DNA of 64,000 bases, from positions 73,107 to 137,106 of the forward strand of contig JAJEHL010000011.1 of assembly GCA_022823725.1 (NCBI GenBank), read 5' to 3'. Below the pieces are notes generated by a model. The model searched no databases. It saw only the letters and a program-made list of their open reading frames with translations, and was not told the origin of the DNA. This DNA is from Candidatus Latescibacterota bacterium. GTDB taxonomy: Bacteria > Latescibacterota > UBA2968. The translations under genes and the position numbers were made by a program. This document shows, one piece after another, positions 2,602 through 36,637 of the stretch. Positions within the stretch are counted from its first letter, which is position 1. The number at the start of each line of letters is the position of its first letter.

Positions 2602-3924
2602 TTAGAACAAATCTGCCGGAACGGGCCTGACAACAATCGAGTCTTCCCCAAATCCTTCCAGTTGCTGGGGATTCAGCGGAGCTTGCCTGTACTGCAGGAT
2701 ATAAGACGAGCCGCCCTGTGTCAGATTCACGGTCAAAATATCGCCCTCTTTGCTGAAATCCACATCGGAAGCGGTCACCTCAGTCAGATTCACGCCATCC
2801 GATGCACCGCCTCCCAATGTGCCATTGATCACGGGTACGCCACTTTGAATCACATATCCCGTACGCCTGTTGAAGAACCGGGCTTCATCGGCGTGCGTGG
2901 AAAACTCGAGCGGCCTGGCAAACGTGATCTCCACAAAACCCTGTTCGATGACTGCACCATTCTCGATTAGAGGATCCTCCACATCGGCGGCTGGCACATG
3001 GCCAGATGGCGCGCGGTGGCGAGGACTGCGTCTCTCCAGAACGGGAAACCACTGGATATCCAGTGAAGCAGGAATACTCGGGAATAGGTCTTCGGGATCC
3101 ATCCACGTGCCATTGAGATGAGCATCTCGCAATGGCCATATTCCAGAATACGGCGGATCATGAGTATCCAATTCTGCAAGGATCTCTGCCGGAGGGGTAT
3201 AAGCGGCATAGCGTACGCCCTCACCGTCCTGCACCCACATAATCATCTGATGAGCGCGAGGATCTTGCCAGGGCCACGGACTATTAAAATAAATGGCCGA
3301 ACGGTTGTTGCGATTTTCAAACGAGCGGTTGTCTGGCCTGTCCGGGTTTGGAATACTAATGCGAACGCGCCCATTACCCAGCACTGTCACATTGCTGTAT
3401 TCCTCGGCTCCGGGTATCACGCGAATCAGGGTATTGGGCTGGTTCAATGCATTACCCGGACGCACCGGAAACGGACTCGTATAATTGGCCAAATTATTGC
3501 CCAATTCACCGACCAGCGGCAACCTGGGACCGGCCTGCCAGAGATAAAACGCACCATAAGCCAGCCTGATACGCTCCACATTATTTTGTGCATATTCAAT
3601 GCGAAGCTGATCGCGCGAGGCATTTACTGAACGCCAGTAATGCCGCACGGTCTTTTCATACGTCACCGACTCCATTGGCGGTGCTGCAAGCGGTGGATTG
3701 TACACAAATACCACCGTGCCATAATCCGATGCCGCCGCCGTAAAAATGATATGCCGGGGCGTGCCCTGAGGCGGATCGGCGACATTGATGGCACTGCCTC
3801 CATTCGTCCCGGAAATCAGCCGATAGCTGCCGCGCCACTCCTCGGCAGGCTGAACCGGGATATCTCGGGTACATCCTGTCGCGCCCAACACACCAATCAG
3901 ACAAAATAATAGAAACTTACGCAT
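2602..3924 (-). CDS. hypothetical lipoprotein
   Basis: ORF-track entry 2602..3945, with the start moved to the ATG at 3922-3924 (MRKFLLFCLIGVLGATGC, lipobox LGATGC). Unknown function, many N-x-S/T motifs. Lies downstream of, and co-oriented with, the T9SS cargo and the beta-barrel gene. Confidence 0.55.
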   Translation of the reverse strand: MRKFLLFCLIGVLGATGCTRDIPVQPAEEWRGSYRLISGTNGGSAINVADPPQGTPRHIIFTAAASDYGTVVFVYNPPLAAPPMESVTYEKTVRHYWRSVNASRDQLRIEYAQNNVERIRLAYGAFYLWQAGPRLPLVGELGNNLANYTSPFPVRPGNALNQPNTLIRVIPGAEEYSNVTVLGNGRVRISIPNPDRPDNRSFENRNNRSAIYFNSPWPWQDPRAHQMIMWVQDGEGVRYAAYTPPAEILAELDTHDPPYSGIWPLRDAHLNGTWMDPEDLFPSIPASLDIQWFPVLERRSPRHRAPSGHVPAADVEDPLIENGAVIEQGFVEITFARPLEFSTHADEARFFNRRTGYVIQSGVPVINGTLGGGASDGVNLTEVTASDVDFSKEGDILTVNLTQGGSSYILQYRQAPLNPQQLEGFGEDSIVVRPVPADLF

Positions 3925-16705: not shown

Positions 16706-16749
16706 AACAAAAAAACCCGCTGAAGATGCTTCAGCGGGTTCGTTTTTTC
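16706..16749. terminator. bidirectional rho-independent terminator
   Basis: AAAAAAACCCGCTGAAGATGCTTCAGCGGGTTCGTTTTTT. An 11-bp GC stem flanked by an A-run and a T-run can terminate transcripts from either direction. Confidence 0.55.
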
Positions 16750-17085
16750 AAGACTATTATGTACTTTAAGTCTGTCATCTCATTTTGAACCCGCCAATAA
16801 TATTTTTGTCATTACCCGTGAAAACCGCGAGATTCGATCCACCATCAGGGCATACATGGCCAGTGGCACGGACAAATGACATCTGCACGGTTGCACTGAT
16901 AGCGCAGTTATCCATCATCTGTAGGGTATTATTCTGGTGGGTTACAAAAATCATGTTACTCTCAACTATATATGCGAAATAGAACTGAATGGTGCAGAAG
17001 ATATATCGGGGATACAGTAAAGTCAAGTGGGTTTTTTTGTGTTAGAGATAAATACACCAAAAGCATCAGTCAAACAAAAATACAA

Positions 17086-17784: not shown

Positions 17785-18591
17785 TTATCTGCGTTCATCT
17801 GCGCCATCTGCGGATGCTTTTCGATGAAACATAAGATCGGCAAACGCGCCCGTCACCTTACTACCCGTATTATCTGAATCGGACATAAGATACACGCGCA
17901 CAACCTCTGCGGGTTCTTCATCGGGATAAAATCGTTTGAAATCCCGGTAAAAATTGCGCGACTCTCCAACCCATTGATTTACATTTTGATCCCCGCTCTC
18001 GGCAACAATGCGGTACCACTTAAACTTGAAAAATCCCAGAATAGACGTCACTTGTGTCAGCGAAGTCTCTTCGGGTATGGTCCGCGTCCAGAGATAGGCA
18101 ATTTCCCGCAACTTCCCTTTGTTATTGAGAACAGAAATACCGATCTTCGCTGCAAAATCATCGCCCGATTTCTTAATTTTCCCTTTGTGATCCGCTGTAT
18201 CGCTATCATCAATCGTATTGCTCACCCGCCAGCGCCATGAGATATGCTGATACTCAGCCGCAGATATGAGATCATACTGCCCCTGCGCCTGTTTGCGGAC
18301 ATCCTTCCCAAACCCCCTGGGCGGGCGGTCACAACGCTTGATCCAATCCTGACTGCGATCAATAGACAACGCCGTGCCATTTTTTGTCGGCACCTGCCAG
18401 AAAAGCGCAGCCGCATGATCGCTGTGAATCGCAAACACCCCATCTCGATGTTGCCCAGTAACATTCTCGCCGCAATCGTCCCAATCGCGTCGAAGCCAAT
18501 CGCTCCCCATATCCACGGCAACGCGATCCTGCGCTTGTACAACACCTGAAAAAACAAAAAAGCCTATCAAAAAAATACTAATGCGAATCAT
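17785..18591 (-). CDS. secreted hypothetical protein
   Basis: Signal peptide MIRISIFLIGFFVFSGVVQAQD. No confident family assignment. Confidence 0.5.
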   Translation of the reverse strand: MIRISIFLIGFFVFSGVVQAQDRVAVDMGSDWLRRDWDDCGENVTGQHRDGVFAIHSDHAAALFWQVPTKNGTALSIDRSQDWIKRCDRPPRGFGKDVRKQAQGQYDLISAAEYQHISWRWRVSNTIDDSDTADHKGKIKKSGDDFAAKIGISVLNNKGKLREIAYLWTRTIPEETSLTQVTSILGFFKFKWYRIVAESGDQNVNQWVGESRNFYRDFKRFYPDEEPAEVVRVYLMSDSDNTGSKVTGAFADLMFHRKASADGADERR

Positions 18592-18634
18592 AATCTACCT
18601 TTTGTTGAAATATTGAAAACTAATTAAAACCGAT

Positions 18635-18896
18635 ACGCGATGTGTGACTTCAAATCCGCCACATAGTAATACCGATAAACAGGGATAAGAAAAGCCTGCC
18701 CCCCGTATGAAAGCACTACGGGGCTGGCTCTGCATGATTTTGAGCAGGGGGCAAAACCACTGGATTGCGGCTAAGCATGCCCCTGCATGATTTAAGCAGG
18801 GGACCCTGCCGCAATGACGGCTCTAAAATCCTTGTTTCGCTGACTGCTGACCACTGATTGCTTGTTTTCTTGACCATTATTCTAAAGTCACACATG
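18635..18896. mobile_element. MITE copy 3 (carries an extra REP-like insertion; right terminus degraded)
   Basis: The left TIR ACGCGATGTGTGACTT is intact. The right end is AAGTCACACATG followed by TCTA instead of ACGT. The interior contains an additional GCATGCCCCTGCATGATTTAAGCAGGGGACCCTGCCGCAATGACGG module. Confidence 0.6.
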
Positions 18897-19095
18897 TCTA
18901 TTGTTTCAGTGTGAATCAAATTCACACCTGTTGTGGAAACACCACATGCAAGCGCGGTTTTAGCGGGGATTTTATTCATTATACGCACAAATGCAATTAT
19001 TGTACCAATAAAAAAAGCGCGACGGGAAAAAAACCGCCGCGCTTATGTGTTTAAACGGCAAAGTGGGGCGAGGCATGCCTCGCCCCTACAATACA

Positions 19096-19722
19096 CTACA
19101 TCTCTGATGACTCTTCGCCGTGATGTTCGGACTTCTCTTTCATCTCGGACTTCTCCTCCGCCCCAGACTCTTTCTTCATCTGATCGCGATCTCCCCCACG
19201 GCGACCGCGAAACCAGCCGCGACCTCTGAACCGGGGACCATCGCCATCTCTAAAACCCGGACCGCGACCTCTAAAACCCGGTCCACCACGCCCCTTGAAA
19301 CCCGGTCCGCCGCGACCGCCTCGTCGCATCTCACCGAGCTTCTCCTTTTGCTCATCCGTCAACAAATTCTTGATATCCATATTATGCTGAATCTCACGCG
19401 CCATAATTTTTCCCTGCGCCGCCGTCACCGCATCGACCTTAGTCTGAATATCCGAAGCCGAAGGATTATCCTCCTTGCGAATCTCACCCAAATCGATCCG
19501 CGCTTTCTGGTGTGCTGCGCGCAAATCGACCATCGCCTTTTGATGGGCAGAACGCAGATCAGACATCTTCTCCTTCTGCTCATCCGTCAACTCCAGCGCC
19601 GCCATACCGCGCATACCGCGGCGTTTGGCCCTTTGGGCGTCTGCATGTTTCACAAAAGCAACGCCTCCAATAATGCCAAGAACAAAAACACCGATAACTG
19701 CGTAGATAATTTTGCGTTTCAT
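19096..19722 (-). CDS. periplasmic LTXXQ-motif protein (Spy/CpxP/ZraP family) with an RG-rich C-terminal tail
   Basis: Signal/anchor MKRKIIYAVIGVFVLGIIGGVAFV. Two LTDEQKEKM/L LTXXQ motifs. C-terminal GRGGPGFKGRGGPGFRGRGPGFR...RFRGRGWFRGRRGG tail. Confidence 0.7.
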   Translation of the reverse strand: MKRKIIYAVIGVFVLGIIGGVAFVKHADAQRAKRRGMRGMAALELTDEQKEKMSDLRSAHQKAMVDLRAAHQKARIDLGEIRKEDNPSASDIQTKVDAVTAAQGKIMAREIQHNMDIKNLLTDEQKEKLGEMRRGGRGGPGFKGRGGPGFRGRGPGFRDGDGPRFRGRGWFRGRRGGDRDQMKKESGAEEKSEMKEKSEHHGEESSEM

Positions 19723-19843
19723 GATACCAACTCCTCATAGTTAAACAGCAGTTTCCCTGCATACTGTCTGTTTGTAGTAAAAAATCGAACAACCCTCGGC
19801 TGTGTTCAGGCCGGCATCTGTTCACAACCCGAAAGATCGCTGA

Positions 19844-20284
19844 TCATGGCCCTCTGCGGGAACCGGGTGGACGGTCTCCCGGGGGCCCTCTGCGGCCGCC
19901 ACCTCGGCCGCGGAATCCTTGACGTCTGTTTTTTTCCTCAAATTTTGCAAACTGCTCAGGCGTGAGAATCGTCTTCAACTTCTCGCGCAACTTTTGCTCC
20001 TGCGACCGCATATCTTCGCCAATTTTTCGGCGCATCGTATCAATCTCGCGCCGGTGTTCCTGAAATGCAGCCCGCACAGCGCTCTTTTGTTCGTCTGACA
20101 AAGCGAGATCCTGCCCCATTCGCTCAATCATGCGATTGTAATCATAAGGCCGCCCCCCACGCGCCCCAGGTGGACCGGGTGAGCGTAAAAACTTACGCTC
20201 GACAATAGTACCACACACCAGCCCCAGGGCAAAAATGCCCATAAATAAAAGAATGGCCTGTGTGCGAGGAGAAAAAGAAAACAT
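19844..20284 (-). CDS. periplasmic LTXXQ-like protein (Spy/CpxP-like paralog) with an RG-rich tail
   Basis: TM/signal MFSFSPRTQAILLFMGIFALGLVCG. Contains LSDEQK and LTPEQ motifs and a C-terminal QGFRGRGGGRRGPPGDRPPGSRRGP tail. Confidence 0.55.
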   Translation of the reverse strand: MFSFSPRTQAILLFMGIFALGLVCGTIVERKFLRSPGPPGARGGRPYDYNRMIERMGQDLALSDEQKSAVRAAFQEHRREIDTMRRKIGEDMRSQEQKLREKLKTILTPEQFAKFEEKNRRQGFRGRGGGRRGPPGDRPPGSRRGP

Positions 20285-20298
20285 GATAGTCCCTTTGT

Positions 20299-20697
20299 TT
20301 ACTCGGGATAGATAACCAGGCTATCGGTTTGCACCTCCGACAGCACCATCTCAGTTTGCGAATCAAAATAATCCGACACTGTATTTGCCTCAGTACTTCC
20401 ATTATCTATCAGCACCATAAAAATAACAGCAGCGGCAGCGGCCAATGGTACAAGGCGTTTACCCGCCCATACCAGGCTATTCCATAAACTCTCTTCCCGA
20501 ATCTGTGTCTGAACACCATCCCACAACCCCGGCGAAGAATCCATCGGCCTCTGACTCAGACGCCTCTGCACATGGCGAAGCAAATCGTATTCGGCGCGAA
20601 GGTCTGCATCTTCTGCTATCCGCGCTTCAATTTCGCGCGCGTGCTCTGCAGGCAAATTGCCGTCAACATAGAGCAACAATTTATCGCGATCAGTCAT
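20299..20697 (-). CDS. anti-sigma factor (single-pass membrane)
   Basis: Start at the ATG 20695-20697 (MTDRDKLLLYVDGNLPAEHAREIEARI...), a typical anti-sigma N-terminus. A TM segment PLAAAAAVIFMVLI follows. Overlaps the 3' end of the ECF sigma gene. Confidence 0.6.
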   Translation of the reverse strand: MTDRDKLLLYVDGNLPAEHAREIEARIAEDADLRAEYDLLRHVQRRLSQRPMDSSPGLWDGVQTQIREESLWNSLVWAGKRLVPLAAAAAVIFMVLIDNGSTEANTVSDYFDSQTEMVLSEVQTDSLVIYPE

Positions 20698-21287
20698 ATA
20701 TCCTCCCCTTGCCATTCGCGGTACAGCGGCAAAAGCAAATCGCGTAAACGCGCCCGTGCCCGCGAAAGCCTCGATTTAACAGTGCCGACAGAAACATCCA
20801 AAACATCGGCAATTTCTTCTTGAGAAAGATCCTCTATATCCTTGAGAACCACCACCGCGCGATGCTCGGGCGAAAGGCAATCGAGCACCTTCTGAATCTC
20901 CTCGCGCAAACCAATGCGCTCAATATCATTTTGCGGTTCATCCGTACCCAAAAATCGATCCAGTGCCATATCGCTTGCCTCCTGCATCCCCTCGATAGAA
21001 ACCCGATCGGGCCGCCGTTGCTCTCGCTGGGCAAACGTGAGACAAACATTGGTGGTAATGCGATACAAATACGTGTAAAAATTCGACCGCCCCTCAAAAT
21101 TTCCCAGTGCTTTATATACCCTGACAAACGCTTCTTGCGCCGCATCCCTTGCCGCTTCTGGATCGCCGAGAATCGAACACGCCAGACCGTAAATACGGCC
21201 TTCATAATGTTCAACCAGATGGCGGAAAGCCTGCACATCGCCCTTTTGGCATTGACGAATCAGATCTCGTTCATCAAAATCAGCCAC
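20694..21287 (-). CDS. RNA polymerase ECF-type sigma-70 factor
   Basis: Region 2 (YEGRIYGLACSILGDPEAARDAAQEAFVRVYKAL) and region 4 (LSPEHRAVVVLKDIEDLSQEEIADVLDVSVGTVKSRLSRAR) signatures. Confidence 0.85.
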   Translation of the reverse strand: MADFDERDLIRQCQKGDVQAFRHLVEHYEGRIYGLACSILGDPEAARDAAQEAFVRVYKALGNFEGRSNFYTYLYRITTNVCLTFAQREQRRPDRVSIEGMQEASDMALDRFLGTDEPQNDIERIGLREEIQKVLDCLSPEHRAVVVLKDIEDLSQEEIADVLDVSVGTVKSRLSRARARLRDLLLPLYREWQGEDI

Positions 21288-21442: not shown

Positions 21443-23209
21443 TCACTCCGTAATAATATCGGCAAATGTCATACCCGAGGGAATCATGGGCAACACATGC
21501 TCTTGATACGGCACAACCACATCGAGCAAATAAGGACCGTTGGAAGAAATCATGCGGTCAATAGCCGGTACGAGATCCTCCTTGCGTTCCGCCCGTTCGG
21601 CCGGCACGCGGAACCCCTTTGCTATCGCCACATAATCGGGAAAAATCGCGTGACTCGGCGGAATATTCATATCTTCATGCGCCTGCGCCGCTTCCGGATC
21701 CCCAATAAACGTATGCCCGCGATTGCTCTTGTAAAAACGATCCTCCCACTGCACCACCATACCCAGATGCTGATTGTTGAGAATCATAGTCTTGACGGGA
21801 ATTTTCTCTGCATACAGCGTCGCCAACTCCTGCACATTCATCGCAAAACTGCCATCGCCATCAATATCGACAACCAGCGCGTCGGGAAATGCCAATTGCG
21901 CTCCCAGCGCAGCGGGCAAACCAAAACCCATCGCCCCCAAACCGCCCGACGTGAGCCAACGGCGCGGCTCATCAAAAGGATAAAATTGCGCCGCCCACAT
22001 CTGGTGTTGCCCCACCCCTGTGGATATAATGGCCTTCCCGTCTGTCATCTTATAAAGCATCTCAATCGCATACTGGGGCAAAATAACATCTTCGACATCT
22101 TTGTATGTAAAGGGATGTTTTTCGCGCCACGTTTCAATCTCATCACACCAGACCTGATAATCGCCCGGCACAACAATACTGTTCAGCTCTTGCAGGGCAT
22201 ATTTAATATCGCTCACAATCGGCAAATGGGCGACCTTATTCTTGTTAATCTCAGAAGGATCGATATCGATATGCACAATGCGACCGTGTTTGCAAAACTC
22301 TTCGAGTTTACCCGTCACCCGATCATCAAAACGCACGCCAAATGCCAGCAACAAATCGGCGTGATTAATGGCGTAATTGGCGTAAACCGACCCGTGCATC
22401 CCCAGCATCTGCAAAGACTGGGGATCTGTTTGCGGAAAAACACCCAGCCCCATCAACGTCTGCGCCACGGGAATACGTGTTTTTCGAGCAAACTCGCGAA
22501 GCTCTTCCGACGCATCTGCAGTCACAATCCCCCCGCCAGCATAAATGAGTGGGCGTTTGGATTCTAAAATTGCCTGTGCAACCTCTTGGATTTGCGCACG
22601 GCTGGCGTGCAACTGATTGGGGGTATAGCTGCGAATAGAAACCGTTTCGGGAAAATCGGGCACACAAACACTTTGCTGCACATTTTTGGGAATATCGACC
22701 AGCACAGGACCGGGCCGCCCAGACGAGGCAATAAAAAACGCCTCTTTGACAACGCGGGGAATATCTTCAATGCGATCCACGAGATAATTGTGCTTCGTAA
22801 TCTGCCGCGTAACCTCAATAATCGGAGTCTCTTGAAAAGCATCGCGACCAATAACAGCAGTGGAGACCTGGCCCGTGATGGCAACGAGCGGCACAGAGTC
22901 CATTTTGGCATCGGCCAGCCCCGTGACCAGATTGGTAGCTCCTGGTCCAGACGTTGCCATACACACCCCGACTTTGCCCGAGGCTTTGGCATATCCCTCA
23001 GCCGCGAAAATTTCGCCCTGTTCGTGCCGGCACAACACAACCTGGATATTGGAACGCGTGAGGGACTGGTGCATTTCCATACTGGCCCCTCCGGGATAGC
23101 CAAAAAGAACTTCGACCCCCTCGCGGATGAGACTTTCGACCAGAATATCGGCACCGCTCATTTCGCCAGGAGTGGAACCAGATGCCGTGGTCTGGGGATT
23201 GCTCGCCAT
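21443..23209 (-). CDS. ilvB: acetolactate synthase large subunit (TPP enzyme)
   Basis: Start at the ATG 23207-23209 (MASNPQ...), preceded by an [24 protein letters not shown]...[28 protein letters not shown] and a C-terminal TPP-binding [14 protein letters not shown] signature. No ilvN follows immediately. Confidence 0.85.
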
Positions 23210-23263
23210 TGCAAAAATCTCCTTGAGATAGGAGCACACCTGCGCGTGCGTCCTTTGTCAGAC

Positions 23264-23299
23264 AAAAAAAAACCGCCATTGCATTGTAGCGATGACGGG
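23264..23299 (-). terminator. attenuator terminator of the ilvB leader
   Basis: On the minus strand: CCCGUCAUCGCUACAAUGCAAUGGCGG followed by U9. Confidence 0.55.
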
Positions 23300-23336
23300 A
23301 TAAGATGTTTTTTCGATACGATCATCAATCCCATCA

Positions 23337-23417
23337 TCACATGGGTACAAGTACTACAACACGGCCTACAACAGCCGTTGTAATTGCAATGTGGGATGTG
23401 GTGATCTGATGTGTCAT
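23337..23417 (-). CDS. ilvB leader peptide (26 aa, Ile/Val/Thr-rich)
   Basis: ATG ACA CAT CAG ATC ACC ACA TCC CAC ATT GCA ATT ACA ACG GCT GTT GTA GGC CGT GTT GTA GTA CTT GTA CCC ATG TGA translates to MTHQITTSHIAITTAVVGRVVVLVPM. A TTGACA-N17-TATCTT promoter lies at 23448-23476 (minus strand). The segment GATGATGGGAT at the stop codon can pair with ATCCCGTCATC, the 5' half of the terminator, as an antiterminator. Confidence 0.5.
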   Translation of the reverse strand: MTHQITTSHIAITTAVVGRVVVLVPM

Positions 23418-23481
23418 AACTCTGCGCTCTCTTTCTGTAAGAAAGAAAAGATACAGGCTTAGTCCTGTTCTGTCAAGAAAA

Positions 23482-24252
23482 TCAGCTATTCTTCTCGCCA
23501 ATCATATTAATCTGGTCTCGCAGCTCGGCAGCGCGTTCAAATTCCTCATTGTCAATTGCTTCCAGCAATTCTTTCTTCAGACGCTCAGACTCCGTGAGGG
23601 GACGCTGTTGCTCAAGCTCGTTGAGCAATTCGTTCAGAGACTCAACAGAGCGTTTTTTTTCAATGTCAAATTCTTCTGCTTCCACTTCTTCCAGATTTTC
23701 GATCTTGTCGAGCACATCGCGAATAATGCGCATGCCCTCCGTAAAATTGTTCTTTTGCGATTCTATCATCACGCGCGCAATCGCGTGAATTCGCAAAACA
23801 TAAGGCCACCATTTTTCGAGATTGAGACGATCGTTTTTCGCAGCAGCGTATTGGTTGACAAAACGAAACAGCCTCATGTTGCGCTCTGTATCTCGAATAA
23901 CGCGGTCATAATCTCGTATTTGGAGTAAAAAAACATACCGCTCGTAGAGCAGTCGGCTTTCATCAAAGAGTTCACGACAGTGCGCCTTTTTCAGTGAAAA
24001 ACCATCGGATGTACCGTGTTCTTCAATGAAATGATGAAGCCTATCAGTAAAATGATCCAGCACAAACGCACTATTGTGCGGTTTGCGCCCATCGGGACGC
24101 CCGTCGAGTTCCATCTGTAGAATGCCTTGAAATGGACCCTGATCTATGCGCACCTGAATTTTTTCAACGCCTTTGGACGAGAAAATTTTGCGAATGCTGT
24201 TTTTGGGATCATAGGGCCAGTGCTTCAGCAAAGGGCCAATATCTTCGGTCAT
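23482..24252 (-). CDS. hypothetical protein with a C-terminal UVR (UvrB/UvrC-like) motif
   Basis: The C-terminal ...LLEAIDNEEFERAAELRDQI... matches the UVR domain consensus. The rest is unassigned. Confidence 0.5.
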   Translation of the reverse strand: MTEDIGPLLKHWPYDPKNSIRKIFSSKGVEKIQVRIDQGPFQGILQMELDGRPDGRKPHNSAFVLDHFTDRLHHFIEEHGTSDGFSLKKAHCRELFDESRLLYERYVFLLQIRDYDRVIRDTERNMRLFRFVNQYAAAKNDRLNLEKWWPYVLRIHAIARVMIESQKNNFTEGMRIIRDVLDKIENLEEVEAEEFDIEKKRSVESLNELLNELEQQRPLTESERLKKELLEAIDNEEFERAAELRDQINMIGEKNS

Positions 24253-33041: not shown

Positions 33042-34727
33042 TCAAGCAGACACAACGCGAATATCAACCTCAAATGCACTGACGGGATAATTTATACCCC
33101 AGATTTCGAGAACGCTGGGATGCACTTCCCCAATAAGCCCGTAAACGCGCTCGCATATCCGGATCTCGCCACTGCGACCAGGCAAAAATGTGGGATGATC
33201 AATCGGCGCAATAGTATATTCAAAATTAAAATAATAGGATAACACCTCGAGAAAGCTCTGAATACCGGACAAATTGGCCTCGTCACTCGCTTCGAGCGCA
33301 CAGAGATGAATATCTGTGCGCGTACCGTAATCTTCCTCCGGCGCGAGAACCCCCACCTCACCCACTTCAAAAATCCGATGCGGGTACAACGCGCGGCGGC
33401 TTGTCGCTTCGGTCTTCAACAAACCGGGCAACAAAGACGCTCGAATCGCGCTGTAATTTTCGGACATGGGATTTGAAATCGAAATAATCTTTGCATCCGG
33501 ATTATTCATATCCACGGTCTGTTCTTTTTGAGAACAGAGAATCGGCAAAAAGACCTCTTGAAATCCGCTCCCAACCATGAGATTGCGAAATCGGTCTGCA
33601 AGATCCTCTTCTGGCGCGGCTTTGCCAACCGTAAAATCCCGGGGCATCTCGGGTTCAAAAGCCTCGTACCCCACACCGATCACAACATCTTCCACAACAT
33701 CGACAGGATGCAAAATATCGTCGCGATAAGGTGCTGGACGCACTTTGATACTCCGCTCTTGCATTTCAATATCCCGATAACCCATCGCGTTGAGCGCGGT
33801 CTGAATCTGCCCTATCGAAATATGTGACCCAACCACTTTGTAAATCTCATCCACATCGACCTGCAACGGCTCGGTCAGATCATAAGGACACGTCACAACC
33901 TGTCCCCTCGGCGTGTGAAATGGATACCGCACCGTCACGGGATAAATACGACCGCCCCGATCAGCCATATTGACCGCCATAATCGCCATAGACAAAAGAA
34001 TAGCGTCGAGTTCGGGACCCGTTGCTTCGCAAAACAAAAACGCATCCCCCACTTCAACGCGCCCCAGACTCTGGCTATTAATCACAGGAGGCATCGAAAG
34101 AACCTCGCCGCGCGAATCGCGGATCAGGGGAAACTTATCCTTCCCCTCGAGAAGATGTGCATACATCTTGCCCGTGGGATGATCGGACAAAATCTGTCGC
34201 AAAGACATCTCATCTTCAAACTCCAGGGGAACAAAAGCAGTTTCATCGGGATCAACCGCATCGTATCGCACCGGATACACAATATCGGACGCATCGTAAA
34301 TCCCAATCGCAACAACGCTGCGACCTCGCCCATATCCATCGGCGAGTTTTTCCTGCGCCTCGATAAGCGCGTCAAGTGCCGCCTCGTCAATCGCAATACC
34401 CTCACACGCAAAAGCGGCAATATAAGGACGGATATTTCGCAACCCGGGATCGACAATAACCTCCCTTTCCTGCGATACGCCAGACGCATCAAAAAAAGAA
34501 TAGTCTGGCTGAACATTCTCCCGATGGCTTTTGAGCAACCGCGCAAGCCCCTCTCCCGACCACAAATCGGGACGATTGGTATCCTTGAGCTGAATGCGAA
34601 GCGTATCCCCATCCTCGGCATCAATCTCAGCCTTCGCAGTTTCAAGAGCAGCACTCAGGCTCTCCGACGAATAAACCTGCCCCGCGAGACGTTCAAAATC
34701 GGGTTTATTAACTGTAATCGTTGGCAT
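33042..34727 (-). CDS. pheT: phenylalanine--tRNA ligase beta subunit, archaeal/eukaryotic type
   Basis: 561 aa. The N-terminus MPTITVNKPDFERLAGQ and overall length match archaeal-type PheT, about 550 aa versus about 800 aa for bacterial PheT. Lies immediately downstream of the archaeal-type pheS. Confidence 0.7.
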   Translation of the reverse strand: MPTITVNKPDFERLAGQVYSSESLSAALETAKAEIDAEDGDTLRIQLKDTNRPDLWSGEGLARLLKSHRENVQPDYSFFDASGVSQEREVIVDPGLRNIRPYIAAFACEGIAIDEAALDALIEAQEKLADGYGRGRSVVAIGIYDASDIVYPVRYDAVDPDETAFVPLEFEDEMSLRQILSDHPTGKMYAHLLEGKDKFPLIRDSRGEVLSMPPVINSQSLGRVEVGDAFLFCEATGPELDAILLSMAIMAVNMADRGGRIYPVTVRYPFHTPRGQVVTCPYDLTEPLQVDVDEIYKVVGSHISIGQIQTALNAMGYRDIEMQERSIKVRPAPYRDDILHPVDVVEDVVIGVGYEAFEPEMPRDFTVGKAAPEEDLADRFRNLMVGSGFQEVFLPILCSQKEQTVDMNNPDAKIISISNPMSENYSAIRASLLPGLLKTEATSRRALYPHRIFEVGEVGVLAPEEDYGTRTDIHLCALEASDEANLSGIQSFLEVLSYYFNFEYTIAPIDHPTFLPGRSGEIRICERVYGLIGEVHPSVLEIWGINYPVSAFEVDIRVVSA

Positions 34728-34746: not shown

Positions 34747-36285
34747 TTACCGCGTATTCCTGACCAGATCCAAATCCGTACTGAACAAATCGCGTATATC
34801 GTTAATACCCAGCGCGACCATCGCCATTCTATCAACCCCCAGACCCCAGGCAATAACCGGAACATCCACACCCAGAGGTCGTGTAAGCTCAGGCCGAAAA
34901 AGACCCGCACCACCAAGCTCAATCCATCCCAGAACGGGATGCTTCGCCTGAAGTTCGACCGAAGGCTCGGTAAAAGGAAAATAATCGGGCACATAGCGCA
35001 CATCTTCGGACTGCGCGATCTCAAGCGCGAACAGCTTGAGCAAACCGAGCAAACTGCGAAAATTTATTTCCTCACCCAAAACAATACCCTCAGCCTGAAA
35101 AAAATCTGCCGCATGCGTGGCATCGACATCATCCGGACGAAAACAACGCGCAAGCGCGAAATATTTACCCGGGATATTTGGCTTTGAAGCGAGCGTACGC
35201 CCCGAAAGCGCAGTCCCCTGACTCCGCAAAATAAGGCGGCGCGACTGCTCGGGATTAAATTCATATTGCCAACCGCGCGAACCAGTATCGCCCCCGTTCT
35301 GATGCGCCTCAGCCACCCTCGAAAAATAGGGTTCCTCTGCCTCTCGGGATTGCGTCGGCTCCGTAACATAATACGCATCGTGAATATTGCGCGCCGCGTG
35401 GAACTGCGGCATAAAAAGGGCATCCATATTCCAGAACTCGGTCTCCACCAGAGAACCTTTCATCTCTTCAAAACCAAGCACCATCAACCGGCGCCGCACA
35501 TTATCGAGATACGCCCGATAGGGATGGTGCTTTCCAATAAGCACGCGCGGCGGCTTAATCGACAAATCATATCGGCGAAAAGACGCGCCCTGCCATGTAC
35601 CCTTCTGAATCATTTCCGGCGTAAGCCGAGAAACTTCATCACCCGTAAGATTGGCTTTGACAACCTCCACAAGCACGCGCCGTCCTTCTTCAGTAAGACA
35701 ATAAACCCGCTCCGTGCGCTCGTCCAAACGAACAGGTGCCCTGCCCCCGCCGCGCTTGCGGGCATTGGCTTCGATATACTGGACAACATCACCGGGAAAA
35801 TTATCAATCTCAATTCCGGTATCGGAAAATTTGTCAAAAAATTCTGGCATAAGTCGATCAATAAAAAAAGAAGCCCGATCTGCATCGACAATAACAACAG
35901 CCCCCTTATCCAGATCGATAATCCCATCCTTTTTCAAACCGCCAAAAGCACTGCCCCAGGCACCTCTGTCAAAACGCTCGTCAGCCTGCAAATCTTGAAT
36001 CCCAACACGCTCTGCATTCGCCCGGGTCAAAAGTGCCGTCTCTGGCGTCGCGCCCTTTGCTACAAAATCCCGTCCCACTTCCGTAAGCGAAACCGTTGCA
36101 CGCGTATTTTCTCCAGTAACTTCGAGCAACTGCTTGGAAATCAGCCACTCGACCGCGCGCCGAACCTGTCCTTCGCCAATGCCCGCCCCCTTTTGAAGTT
36201 GTGCATCGGACTGCTCGGCACTGGCATTATTCTCATATACACGCAAAATGCGAATTTCGAGCGCATGTAAAGATGCGAGATCCAT
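34747..36285 (-). CDS. pheS: phenylalanine--tRNA ligase alpha subunit, archaeal/eukaryotic type
   Basis: Start at the ATG 36283-36285 (MDLASLHALEIRIL...) with a GGAG RBS; the track start at 36318 is a TTG inside the T-box terminator. About 510 aa with an extended N-terminal tRNA-binding region. Class II catalytic core ...FRPDDVDATHAADFFQAEG...GWIELGGAGLFRPE...AWGLGVDRMAM. Confidence 0.7.
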   Translation of the reverse strand: MDLASLHALEIRILRVYENNASAEQSDAQLQKGAGIGEGQVRRAVEWLISKQLLEVTGENTRATVSLTEVGRDFVAKGATPETALLTRANAERVGIQDLQADERFDRGAWGSAFGGLKKDGIIDLDKGAVVIVDADRASFFIDRLMPEFFDKFSDTGIEIDNFPGDVVQYIEANARKRGGGRAPVRLDERTERVYCLTEEGRRVLVEVVKANLTGDEVSRLTPEMIQKGTWQGASFRRYDLSIKPPRVLIGKHHPYRAYLDNVRRRLMVLGFEEMKGSLVETEFWNMDALFMPQFHAARNIHDAYYVTEPTQSREAEEPYFSRVAEAHQNGGDTGSRGWQYEFNPEQSRRLILRSQGTALSGRTLASKPNIPGKYFALARCFRPDDVDATHAADFFQAEGIVLGEEINFRSLLGLLKLFALEIAQSEDVRYVPDYFPFTEPSVELQAKHPVLGWIELGGAGLFRPELTRPLGVDVPVIAWGLGVDRMAMVALGINDIRDLFSTDLDLVRNTR

Positions 36286-36310
36286 CAAGAGAAACTCCAA
36301 TGTTAGTATT

Positions 36311-36586
36311 AAAAACAAAAAGCCCCTTCGTCATCATAGGGACGAAAGAGCTTCTCCGCGGTACCACCCTATTTGCGCTTAAAAGCACCACTCAGTAGAT
36401 GGCCGTCACCATCCTGTCCATTATCGGCGGACCCACCGGCTCGGCTTAATAGGAAACTGTCTTTCCATTCGGCTTTGCAGCTCGGGAGGGAACTTCGCCT
36501 GTGCATCCTGCAGATGTGCTTTCAGCCCAGGACACATCCTCTCTGTGCAGTTGGGAACAGGCTACTTTTCTCCGTCATTGCTTTAA
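36311..36586 (-). promoter_or_regulatory. T-box riboswitch leader (Phe specifier candidate) upstream of pheS
   Basis: The minus strand contains CAAAUAGGGUGGUACCGCGGAG, a 15/17 match to the T-box consensus AAUUAGGGUGGNACCGCG. It is followed by the terminator CUUUCGUCCCUAUGAUGACGAAGGGGCUUUUUGUUUUU. Upstream is an AGAGAG (GA/K-turn-like) motif and a GAAGUUCCC segment holding a UUC Phe codon. A promoter TTGACA-N17-TATGTT lies at 36593-36622. Confidence 0.6.
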
Positions 36587-36637
36587 GGGCAAAACATAGA
36601 AATTTGCGCTACAAGTGTCAAGCCGAAAGTAGCAAAT

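Follow-up and report, generated by a model that had tools for sequence, protein, structure and literature searches.

The leader region upstream of ilvB

The DNA analysed here is a 64-kb stretch of a Candidatus Latescibacterota genome (the window, by which we mean the whole of it), and the element in question is the interval that precedes its ilvB gene, which encodes the large subunit of acetolactate synthase. Coordinates are in the numbering of the window unless a relative is named, and the elements of the candidate attenuator, all lying in the region 23100-23650, were read on the minus strand (Table 1). An original prediction had proposed that a leader-peptide transcription attenuator occupies this interval, and all of its elements were found at the coordinates it had given. 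The promoter-like site TTGACA-N17-TATCTT (P1) is present and matches 10/12 consensus positions, in a 1-kb scan that gave 2 such sites against 0.7 expected; a transcript from it would start at about 23441, with a 5' untranslated region (UTR) of about 24 nt. The leader peptide of 26 codons reads exactly as quoted, and its stop codon is followed immediately by a second in-frame UGA, with two more after UGG GAU.

The composition given for this peptide (7 Val, 6 Thr, 4 Ile and 1 Leu) has to be corrected, being one too high in each of Val, Thr and Ile: the leader MTHQITTSHIAITTAVVGRVVVLVPM contains 6 Val, 5 Thr, 3 Ile and 1 Leu, which is 15 of its 26 residues. At the amino-acid frequencies of the window, 15 or more V/T/I/L in 25 residues have a binomial probability of 8.5e-4, and of the window's 331 ATG open reading frames (ORFs) of 15-40 codons none but the leader has 5 or more Val in 9 residues. 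GUA provides 4 of the 6 Val codons of the leader; no Val codon is rarer in the window's long ORFs (13.7%), and in the window's ilvB it makes up 2% of the Val codons. The ORF track had been said to show a spurious 60-aa ORF alone at this place. That ORF (GTG start, 23158-23340) is indeed in the mechanical list, together with a 54-aa TTG ORF (23337-23501) that holds the leader in frame; both are spurious, the probable product being the 26-codon leader.

Downstream of the leader stop codon stands the predicted rho-independent terminator, CCGUCAU..AUGGCGG followed by U9, whose arms (23298-23292 with 23279-23273) fold with -12.8 kcal/mol (z = -3.75; 0/200 shuffles as stable) and whose U run ends 55 nt upstream of the ilvB start. 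The alternative helix, the antiterminator, joins segment 2 to segment 3. Its pairing over the stop codon stands as proposed, and the count of 10/11 complementary positions between GAUGAUGGGAU and AUCCCGUCAUC becomes 11/11 (10 Watson-Crick pairs and one G-U), within a helix that extends to 13 bp, with -23.7 kcal/mol, z = -5.46 and 0/200 shuffles as stable. RNA folding, which had been suggested as a check for alternative structures, thus yields both helices, and the full-length fold prefers the antiterminator. Because segment 3 contains the terminator 5' arm, antiterminator and terminator are mutually exclusive, and this part of the claim of classic attenuation (the exclusive 2:3 and 3:4 structures) is upheld. 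The full four-segment classic design is tentative: in nascent-transcript folds, before segment 3 is made, a stretch within the leader (segment 1) pairs with segment 2; in the window this duplex has -14.7 kcal/mol (dinucleotide shuffles, p = 0.018), and segment 1 is a possible anti-antiterminator.

Table 1. Features of the ilvB locus and of other loci compared with it
Feature	Position	Strand	Content and basis
UvrB/C-motif (UVR) protein gene, 256 aa	23482-24252	(-)	upstream of ilvB, same strand; ends 23482
Promoter-like site P1	23476-23471 (-35), 23453-23448 (-10)	(-)	TTGACA, 17-nt spacer, TATCTT; consensus scan
Leader ORF, 26 codons + UGA	23337..23417 (ATG 23417-23415, TGA 23339-23337)	(-)	MTHQITTSHIAITTAVVGRVVVLVPM; sequence reading
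Thr/Ile-rich first half, codons 2-14	23376..23414	(-)	THQITTSHIAITT, 5 Thr + 3 Ile codons; sequence reading
Tentative segment 1, ORF nt 20-33	23385..23398	(-)	CAUCCCACAUUGCA; duplex energy vs shuffles
Val cluster, codons 16-24	23346..23372	(-)	VVGRVVVLV = GUU GUA GGC CGU GUU GUA GUA CUU GUA; sequence reading
Segment 2, antiterminator 5' arm	23328..23340	(-)	GUGAUGAUGGGAU; first base is the last of codon 26; spans the stop
Segment 3, antiterminator 3' arm and terminator 5' arm	23289..23301	(-)	AUCCCGUCAUCGC; alignment A2 columns 49-61
Intrinsic terminator	23264..23298	(-)	stem CCGUCAU.GC / GC.AUGGCGG 23298-23273, then U9 23272-23264; scan + folding
Decayed remnant of second promoter P2	23233..23261	(-)	CTGACA, 17 nt, TGTGCT; homology in alignment A3; consensus scan gave no call
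ilvB, acetolactate synthase large subunit, 588 aa	21443..23209	(-)	ATG 23209, Shine-Dalgarno AAGGAG 23224-23219; TIGR00118
P2, L163	1480-1510		
P2, L164	455-485		
P2, L165/L166	~2925-2955		
P2, L169	~2775-2805		
Leader, L161/L162 (ilvB 93%)			peptide as in the window; 2 synonymous, 0 non-synonymous changes (vs L161)
Leader, L163			MTNFITTTAITAITGVVNRVVVLVPTRWRDR
Leader, L164			MTYQTTTSLMTTTTDIVGRVIVLLLKRWRDR
Leader, L165			MQTPINTVSVQTDDTLVVGVVGVPVQRWRR
Leader, L166			MTSTQITAIVVTHLVERVGVVDVSVPRWRY
Leader, L167			MSPRTTKLSKRIDLRLVRLVTVTGRRWARR
Leader, L168			...IIQKRLVRVVRVSDLVVTSNEPRRWDRP
Leader, L169			...LIGVGLVAGLVVANGEDRQRERP
Leader, L170			...LYAVVGVVSDLVGVDTGIRWRDCL
Verrucomicrobiota uORF, L021	3767-3888		for the Verrucomicrobiota uORFs, e.g. 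MKNVTLTVILVVAVVGSDAVGVS, MRENIRQIALVLVVVVGDAVGACRE
Verrucomicrobiota uORF, L087	1248-1374		
Verrucomicrobiota uORF, L086	1163-1243		

Conservation, covariation and codon choice

Relatives were reached via a homologous-protein search with ilvB, which gave a graded series with identities from 97% down to 63%; twelve of their loci were examined. The comparison set consists of 11 sequences (the window and 10 loci whose ilvB is 71-98% identical), which hold 9 non-redundant leaders counting that of the window. The nearest genome is the Candidatus Latescibacterota metagenome-assembled genome OZ242195.1 (L001, ilvB 98% identical), the one close relative among the matches listed in scans of contig collections with ilvB, and several other relatives are named Latescibacterota or Latescibacteria by their sources. 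Wherever ilvB is at least 71% identical, the relatives keep the order of UVR gene, gap and ilvB, and each gap contains a TTGAC(A/T) promoter, a Val-rich open frame, an antiterminator and a terminator with its U run; the promoter (-35 TTGAC(A/T), -10 TAnnnT) stands at the equivalent place in all of them, 75-90 nt upstream of the leader start. A lack of conservation of the peptide or the pairing segments had been named in the original prediction as something that would refute it, and the Val-rich frame and both helices are kept throughout the 71-98% range. At two loci with ilvB at 69% (L171 and L172) the leader is absent, the neighbours differ and there is a promoter next to ilvB only, so that the element belongs to one clade; the other loci among the matches listed (at most 63% identity; Planctomycetota, Verrucomicrobiota and more distant) have no such leader either.

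Base pairs were counted over the 11 sequences on a MAFFT alignment (A2) that starts at segment 2 and was not fitted to structure; a first MAFFT alignment (A1), with segment 2 of L165/L166 three columns out of register, was dropped. Every sequence folds alone into the terminator (-12.8 to -29.5 kcal/mol) followed by a U run, and every one also folds into the alternative 2:3 helix (-15.9 to -34.5 kcal/mol). For the antiterminator, 87.3% of the cells are paired and 5/13 pairs have changed on both sides, slid registers reaching at most 57% and 0/500 shuffles attaining the covariation score; for the terminator the corresponding values are 91.7%, 5/11 pairs and at most 58% in slid registers. Column 57 of segment 3 covaries both ways, as U-A/C-G with segment 2 and as A-U/G-C with segment 4. 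In the same region, CCCGCCAUC of the relatives is paired twice to GAUGGCGGG, and in the window, which has CCCGUCAUC, the segment-2 partner has changed from G to A (giving an A-U pair) and the segment-4 partner stays G (giving a G-U pair). With a covariance model built here (CM R1), the locus obtains 75.9 bits. Run on the 64-kb window, the model finds this site and one further match (16710-16778, minus strand, 21.7 bits), which was rejected as a second attenuator, being an ordinary strong gene-end terminator (ACCCGCTGAAGCATCTTCAGCGGGTTTTTTT) without a leader ORF; the terminator half of the model is therefore generic.

These data bear directly on a competing explanation, in which the hairpin and U9 simply terminate the upstream UVR-motif gene, and both the ORF and the alternative pairing are coincidental. 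A gene on this strand does precede the hairpin, and the window is rich in short ORFs (331), but the stop of that gene is ~210 nt away and a conserved promoter intervenes. Moreover, none of the other small ORFs among the 331 is Val-rich in this way, the leader ORF is conserved, and the antiterminator (z = -5.5) covaries. Already disfavoured by the comparative data, this explanation is hardly credible.

The coding frame of the leader contains 0 stops in 9/9 non-redundant sequences, and the other two frames contain 33 (in +1) and 6. The peptide itself drifts (9-15 non-synonymous changes per pair) while its Val content is kept, as would be the case if the codons, and not the peptide, were what counts. 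The richness in Thr persists in L163 (7 residues) and L164 (8) and is weaker in L165 and L166 (4 each); L167-L170 have 1-4. Across the 9 leaders GUA makes up 37/52 Val codons (71%) and GUG 0/52; in the adjacent ilvB genes GUA accounts for 2-22% and GUG for 25-45% of the Val codons. The triplet falls in the leader frame 37 of the 38 times it occurs. This preference, confined to one frame that is also open, lends indirect support to the leader ORF being read as codons, and biased synonymous choice is a recognised property of attenuator leaders, explained by selective charging of isoacceptors (PMC1183508).

Could the hairpin switch be real and its sensor be something other than a ribosome, i.e. 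a protein or small ligand acting on the GUA-repeat region in a TRAP-like or riboswitch-like manner? The GUA triplets, at 3-6 nt spacing, superficially resemble the repeats bound by RNA-binding attenuation proteins, of which TRAP of Bacillus, a protein that binds triplet repeats, is an example. The weak leader Shine-Dalgarno sequence points the same way, as does the control of ilvB by a ppGpp riboswitch in some bacteria (PMC10272879). On the other hand, the frame that bears the GUA triplets is open from the start codon to segment 2 in all nine sequences, with the 33 stops of the +1 frame beside it, the number and spacing of the triplets are variable (2-6), Rfam gives no matching family even at E <= 10, and upstream of segment 2 there is no conserved structure except one local hairpin. 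A sensor of this kind is accordingly judged highly unlikely.

The end of the leader ORF provides a further line of evidence. In the relatives, the segment 2 homologue CGAUGGCGGGAU lies inside the ORF, encodes R-W-R-D (CGA UGG CGG GAU) and is followed by the stop, the relatives having CCC ACG CGA UGG CGG GAU AGG UGA and the window CCC AUG UGA UGA UGG GAU UGA UGA. The leader stop of the window lineage is thus shifted 5 codons upstream with respect to L163-L166 (by the change of CGA to UGA and by further in-frame UGAs), and the double stop UGA UGA of the window falls within the coding sequence of the relatives. Despite this shift, the pairing of segment 2 with segment 3 is kept via a compensating change. 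With either stop, a ribosome that finishes the leader would cover segment 2, and the comparison suggests that the shift is a natural experiment on the masking of segment 2 by the ribosome.

Proposed mechanism and the second promoter

What is established here comprises the sequence elements with their thermodynamic plausibility, conservation and covariation, together with the coding frame and the biased codon choice. On this basis we consider it very probable that ilvB is preceded by a ribosome-mediated (leader-peptide) transcription attenuator. From these elements we infer the ribosome geometry, the coupling of transcription to translation, the amino acids sensed and the direction of the response. 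Transcription would begin at P1, and a ribosome would translate the 26-codon leader while RNA polymerase advances. With Val-tRNA (perhaps also Thr- and Ile-tRNA) charged, the ribosome would reach the UGA at 23339-23337 and cover segment 2; with segment 2 masked, segment 3 would pair with segment 4, and the resulting terminator with U9 would stop transcription 55 nt before ilvB. When charged Val-tRNA is scarce, the ribosome would instead stall in the GUU/GUA cluster of codons 16-24 (codons 20-22 being the most effective), with its leading edge at or just before segment 2. The Val cluster would in this way be the stall site that leaves segment 2 free, and once segment 3 emerges the 2:3 helix (13 bp, -23.7 kcal/mol) would form and outcompete the terminator (-12.8 kcal/mol), so that the polymerase enters ilvB.

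The geometry appears compatible with this sequence of events. Judged by established footprint sizes, a ribosome reaches some 12-15 nt downstream of its A site. When that site holds the stop codon (ORF nt 79-81), segment 2 (nt 78-90) would be covered; when it holds Val codons 20-22 (nt 58-66), the edge would lie at about nt 70-81 and segment 2 would be mostly or wholly free. The Thr and Ile codons of the first half may act as additional regulatory codons and so add further inputs. A leader that is left untranslated may lead to termination if the four-segment design applies, or to read-through if the design has two helices.

Several points weigh against this reading. It is drawn from sequence comparison, and the organism is uncultured. 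The leader Shine-Dalgarno sequence is weak in the window (AGAGAG/GCAGAG) and weak or absent in several relatives, and three relatives need GTG or TTG leader starts, of unproven use. As the eleven sequences are related, the counts of paired cells overstate the number of independent events, although the slid-register control, which preserves the relatedness, gives a clear difference. With regard to the four-segment form, the segment 1:2 duplex is significant in 3/10 sequences, namely the window and, at ORF nt 18-33, L166 (p = 0.006) and L168 (p = 0.028), and in the other 7 its energy does not differ significantly from that of shuffles. The similar-looking ilvB leader of Streptomyces coelicolor did not behave as a classical attenuator, mutations of its regulatory codons having been without effect (PMC1262725), and anatomy alone can therefore mislead on mechanism. 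Finally, five relatives (L163-L166 and L169) have a second, consensus promoter, P2 (TTGACA-N17-TATAAT), between the terminator and ilvB, from which it follows that the attenuator can control there only the P1 transcripts, that is, part of ilvB transcription.

The distribution of P2 gives some indication of how the present arrangement may have arisen. In relatives a conserved stretch containing GAAAAATA lies downstream of P2, and P2 has its homologue in the only promoter that the leaderless loci L171 and L172 possess. No intact P2 was found in the window, L001, L161, L168 or L170; in the window and L161 its -10 element has decayed and the downstream UTR is deleted. In the window the attenuator probably governs all ilvB transcripts, and the comparison suggests that the attenuator cassette was added upstream of P2, the older promoter. 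Across the lineages there is no clear link between terminator strength and loss of P2, since L168 and L170 are without P2 yet have strong terminators.

P2 also gives some room to the idea that the leader is a separate small gene, equipped with a promoter and terminator of its own, which encodes a hydrophobic micropeptide and lies upstream of ilvB without regulating it: ilvB can be transcribed on its own in the five relatives with P2 and in the leaderless L171 and L172. Such a gene, however, sits poorly with a peptide as little conserved as this one, in which the Val content and GUA are what is kept. What conserves the C-terminal RWRD is its nucleotide sequence, which serves as a pairing arm, and the window lineage has truncated RWRD with the pairing intact. 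Moreover, a plain gene terminator does not need a covarying helix that is exclusive with it, and an intact P2 is gone in the window and the four relatives named above. We regard this explanation as very improbable, and keep a leader-peptide attenuator of ilvB as the preferred one.

An extended form of the attenuator reading, which is put forward tentatively and as a whole is rather unlikely, joins these observations into a two-input attenuator of the Latescibacterota clade, with sensing of a GUA isoacceptor and a cassette added upstream of the older P2. The Thr/Ile codons may be part of a segment 1 by which segment 2 is otherwise sequestered, the run of rare GUA codons may tie ilvB to the charging of one tRNA-Val isoacceptor, and a cassette of P1, leader and terminator may have joined a constitutive P2, whose decay then handed full control to the attenuator. 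If this were true, the stepwise birth and take-over of an attenuator would be documented.

Known leaders, neighbouring genes and significance

At gathering scores, Rfam 15 gave no family at the locus or at 13 related loci, whether Thr_leader, Leu_leader, His_leader, Trp_leader, Phe_leader, T-box or any other, and at E <= 10 it returned for the locus nothing but chance matches of snoRNA type; the nearest family was Thr_leader, with 20.1 bits (E = 3.3) in L163 against a gathering score of 55. In E. coli, the ivbL leader, rich in Val and Leu codons, lies upstream of ilvBN. With ivbL of E. coli and Salmonella and with the enterobacterial trp, his, leu, thr, ilvGMEDA and pheA leaders, the present element shares a short ORF rich in cognate codons, an ORF end that overlaps the first arm of an antiterminator competing with an intrinsic terminator upstream of the structural gene, and a biased synonymous codon choice (PMC1183508). 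It differs from them in phylum (here Latescibacterota), in having no sequence similarity to them and no match to an Rfam leader family, and in that a 1:2 pause or anti-antiterminator hairpin is tentative here; with respect to ivbL, ilvB stands without ilvN and the Thr/Ile codons come early, within the leader's first half. In function the element is a device of the same kind as ivbL, and ilvB attenuators with upstream ORFs (uORFs) rich in branched-chain amino acid (BCAA) and Thr codons are already known in several phyla.

Among these are the ilvB uORF motifs of the Breaker laboratory, i.e. ilvB-II (Corynebacterium), ilvB-OMG (41 representatives from various phyla) and the ilvB motif of Leptospira (PMC10272879). 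They too are BCAA-codon-rich uORFs upstream of ilvB, variable in length and sequence and read as transcription attenuators, and ilvB-OMG and the Leptospira motif are also threonine-rich with runs of Val codons (PMC10272879). The present element differs in having no Rfam 15 match (the inclusion of these motifs in Rfam 15 being unconfirmed) and in a sequence and helices specific to the Latescibacterota clade. Actinobacterial ilvB leaders (Corynebacterium, Mycobacterium, Streptomyces) likewise have ORFs with Ile/Val/Leu runs that overlap terminator hairpins with poly-U (PMC1262725; see also PMC11857589), but their sequences are unrelated and that of C. glutamicum is described with a three-hairpin model. 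Literature searches returned no report of uORF attenuation of ilvB in Latescibacterota, nor of this clade-specific sequence family.

Among 160 unrelated ilvB loci sampled, about 20 have a uORF with a V/I/L run and then a T run, and together with the known motifs this means that the kind is common. Verrucomicrobiota loci (L021, L086 and L087) and the metagenome loci L137, L140, L144 and L145 resemble the present locus in the succession of a Val/Ile/Leu-run uORF, a T run within ~40-80 nt, and ilvB. The Verrucomicrobiota peptides are different ones (MKNVTLTVILVVAVVGSDAVGVS), and with the covariance model built here L021 and L087 score 29.3 and 26.7 bits, against 50-79 for the Latescibacterota set; no Rfam match was found in these two, the other-phylum loci tested. 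The resemblance may reflect homology or convergence. Further loci with V/I/L-run uORFs are L052, L075 and L133, and a soil locus provides the example MLSSFTGRITTTVPVVVVIIGVVVSVPV.

The product of the window's ilvB is of the biosynthetic type (TIGR00118 728.8 bits against a cutoff of 538.35), and no small-subunit gene (ilvN/ilvH) is adjacent. Downstream, at 17785-21287 on the same strand, follow genes for an extracytoplasmic-function (ECF) sigma factor (20694-21287), a probable anti-sigma factor (carrying zf-HC2 in relatives), two LTXXQ/Metal_resist periplasmic proteins and a DUF3047 protein. Most relatives have the same gene order, the ECF sigma gene being downstream of ilvB in all of those with ilvB at least 71% identical but L167. 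Between the terminator and ilvB, a stretch of about 30 nt (GACGCACGCGCAGGTGTGCTCCTATCTCAAG; 23219-23251), flanked by a short direct repeat (AAAGGA/CAAGGA), is present in the window and L161 and missing in L001 (3985-3995). It includes a CUCC...GGAG hairpin (23234-23219), flagged as terminator-like by the scan, which would pair with the ilvB Shine-Dalgarno sequence; as it is deleted in L001, the hairpin was left out of the mechanism.

Elsewhere in the window, the minus strand carries at 36335-36587 a T-box leader (RF00230, 108 bits; gathering score 93), which precedes archaeal/eukaryal-type pheS and pheT (ORFs 34747-36318 and 33042-34727, both on the minus strand; PRK04172 537 bits, pheT_arch 489 bits) and whose specifier position in the alignment is UUC (Phe), within GAA-G-UUC. 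With this T-box and the putative ilvB leader in one genome, both T-box and leader-peptide sensing of tRNA charging would therefore be in use.

Knowledge of attenuation itself is unchanged by these results, the switch being of a real but ordinary kind. Its practical uses lie in a correction of the annotation (a probable 26-codon leader in place of the 54- and 60-aa ORFs) and in a seed covariance model for the clade. It is also a comparatively clean case, which brings together a three-way covariation, a conserved choice of a rare codon and a natural shift of the stop codon. The prediction for this organism is that its ilvB responds to the charging of Val-tRNA, and possibly of Thr- or Ile-tRNA. 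With it, the uncultured phylum Candidatus Latescibacterota is added to the lineages that apparently control acetolactate synthase by uORF-dependent attenuation.

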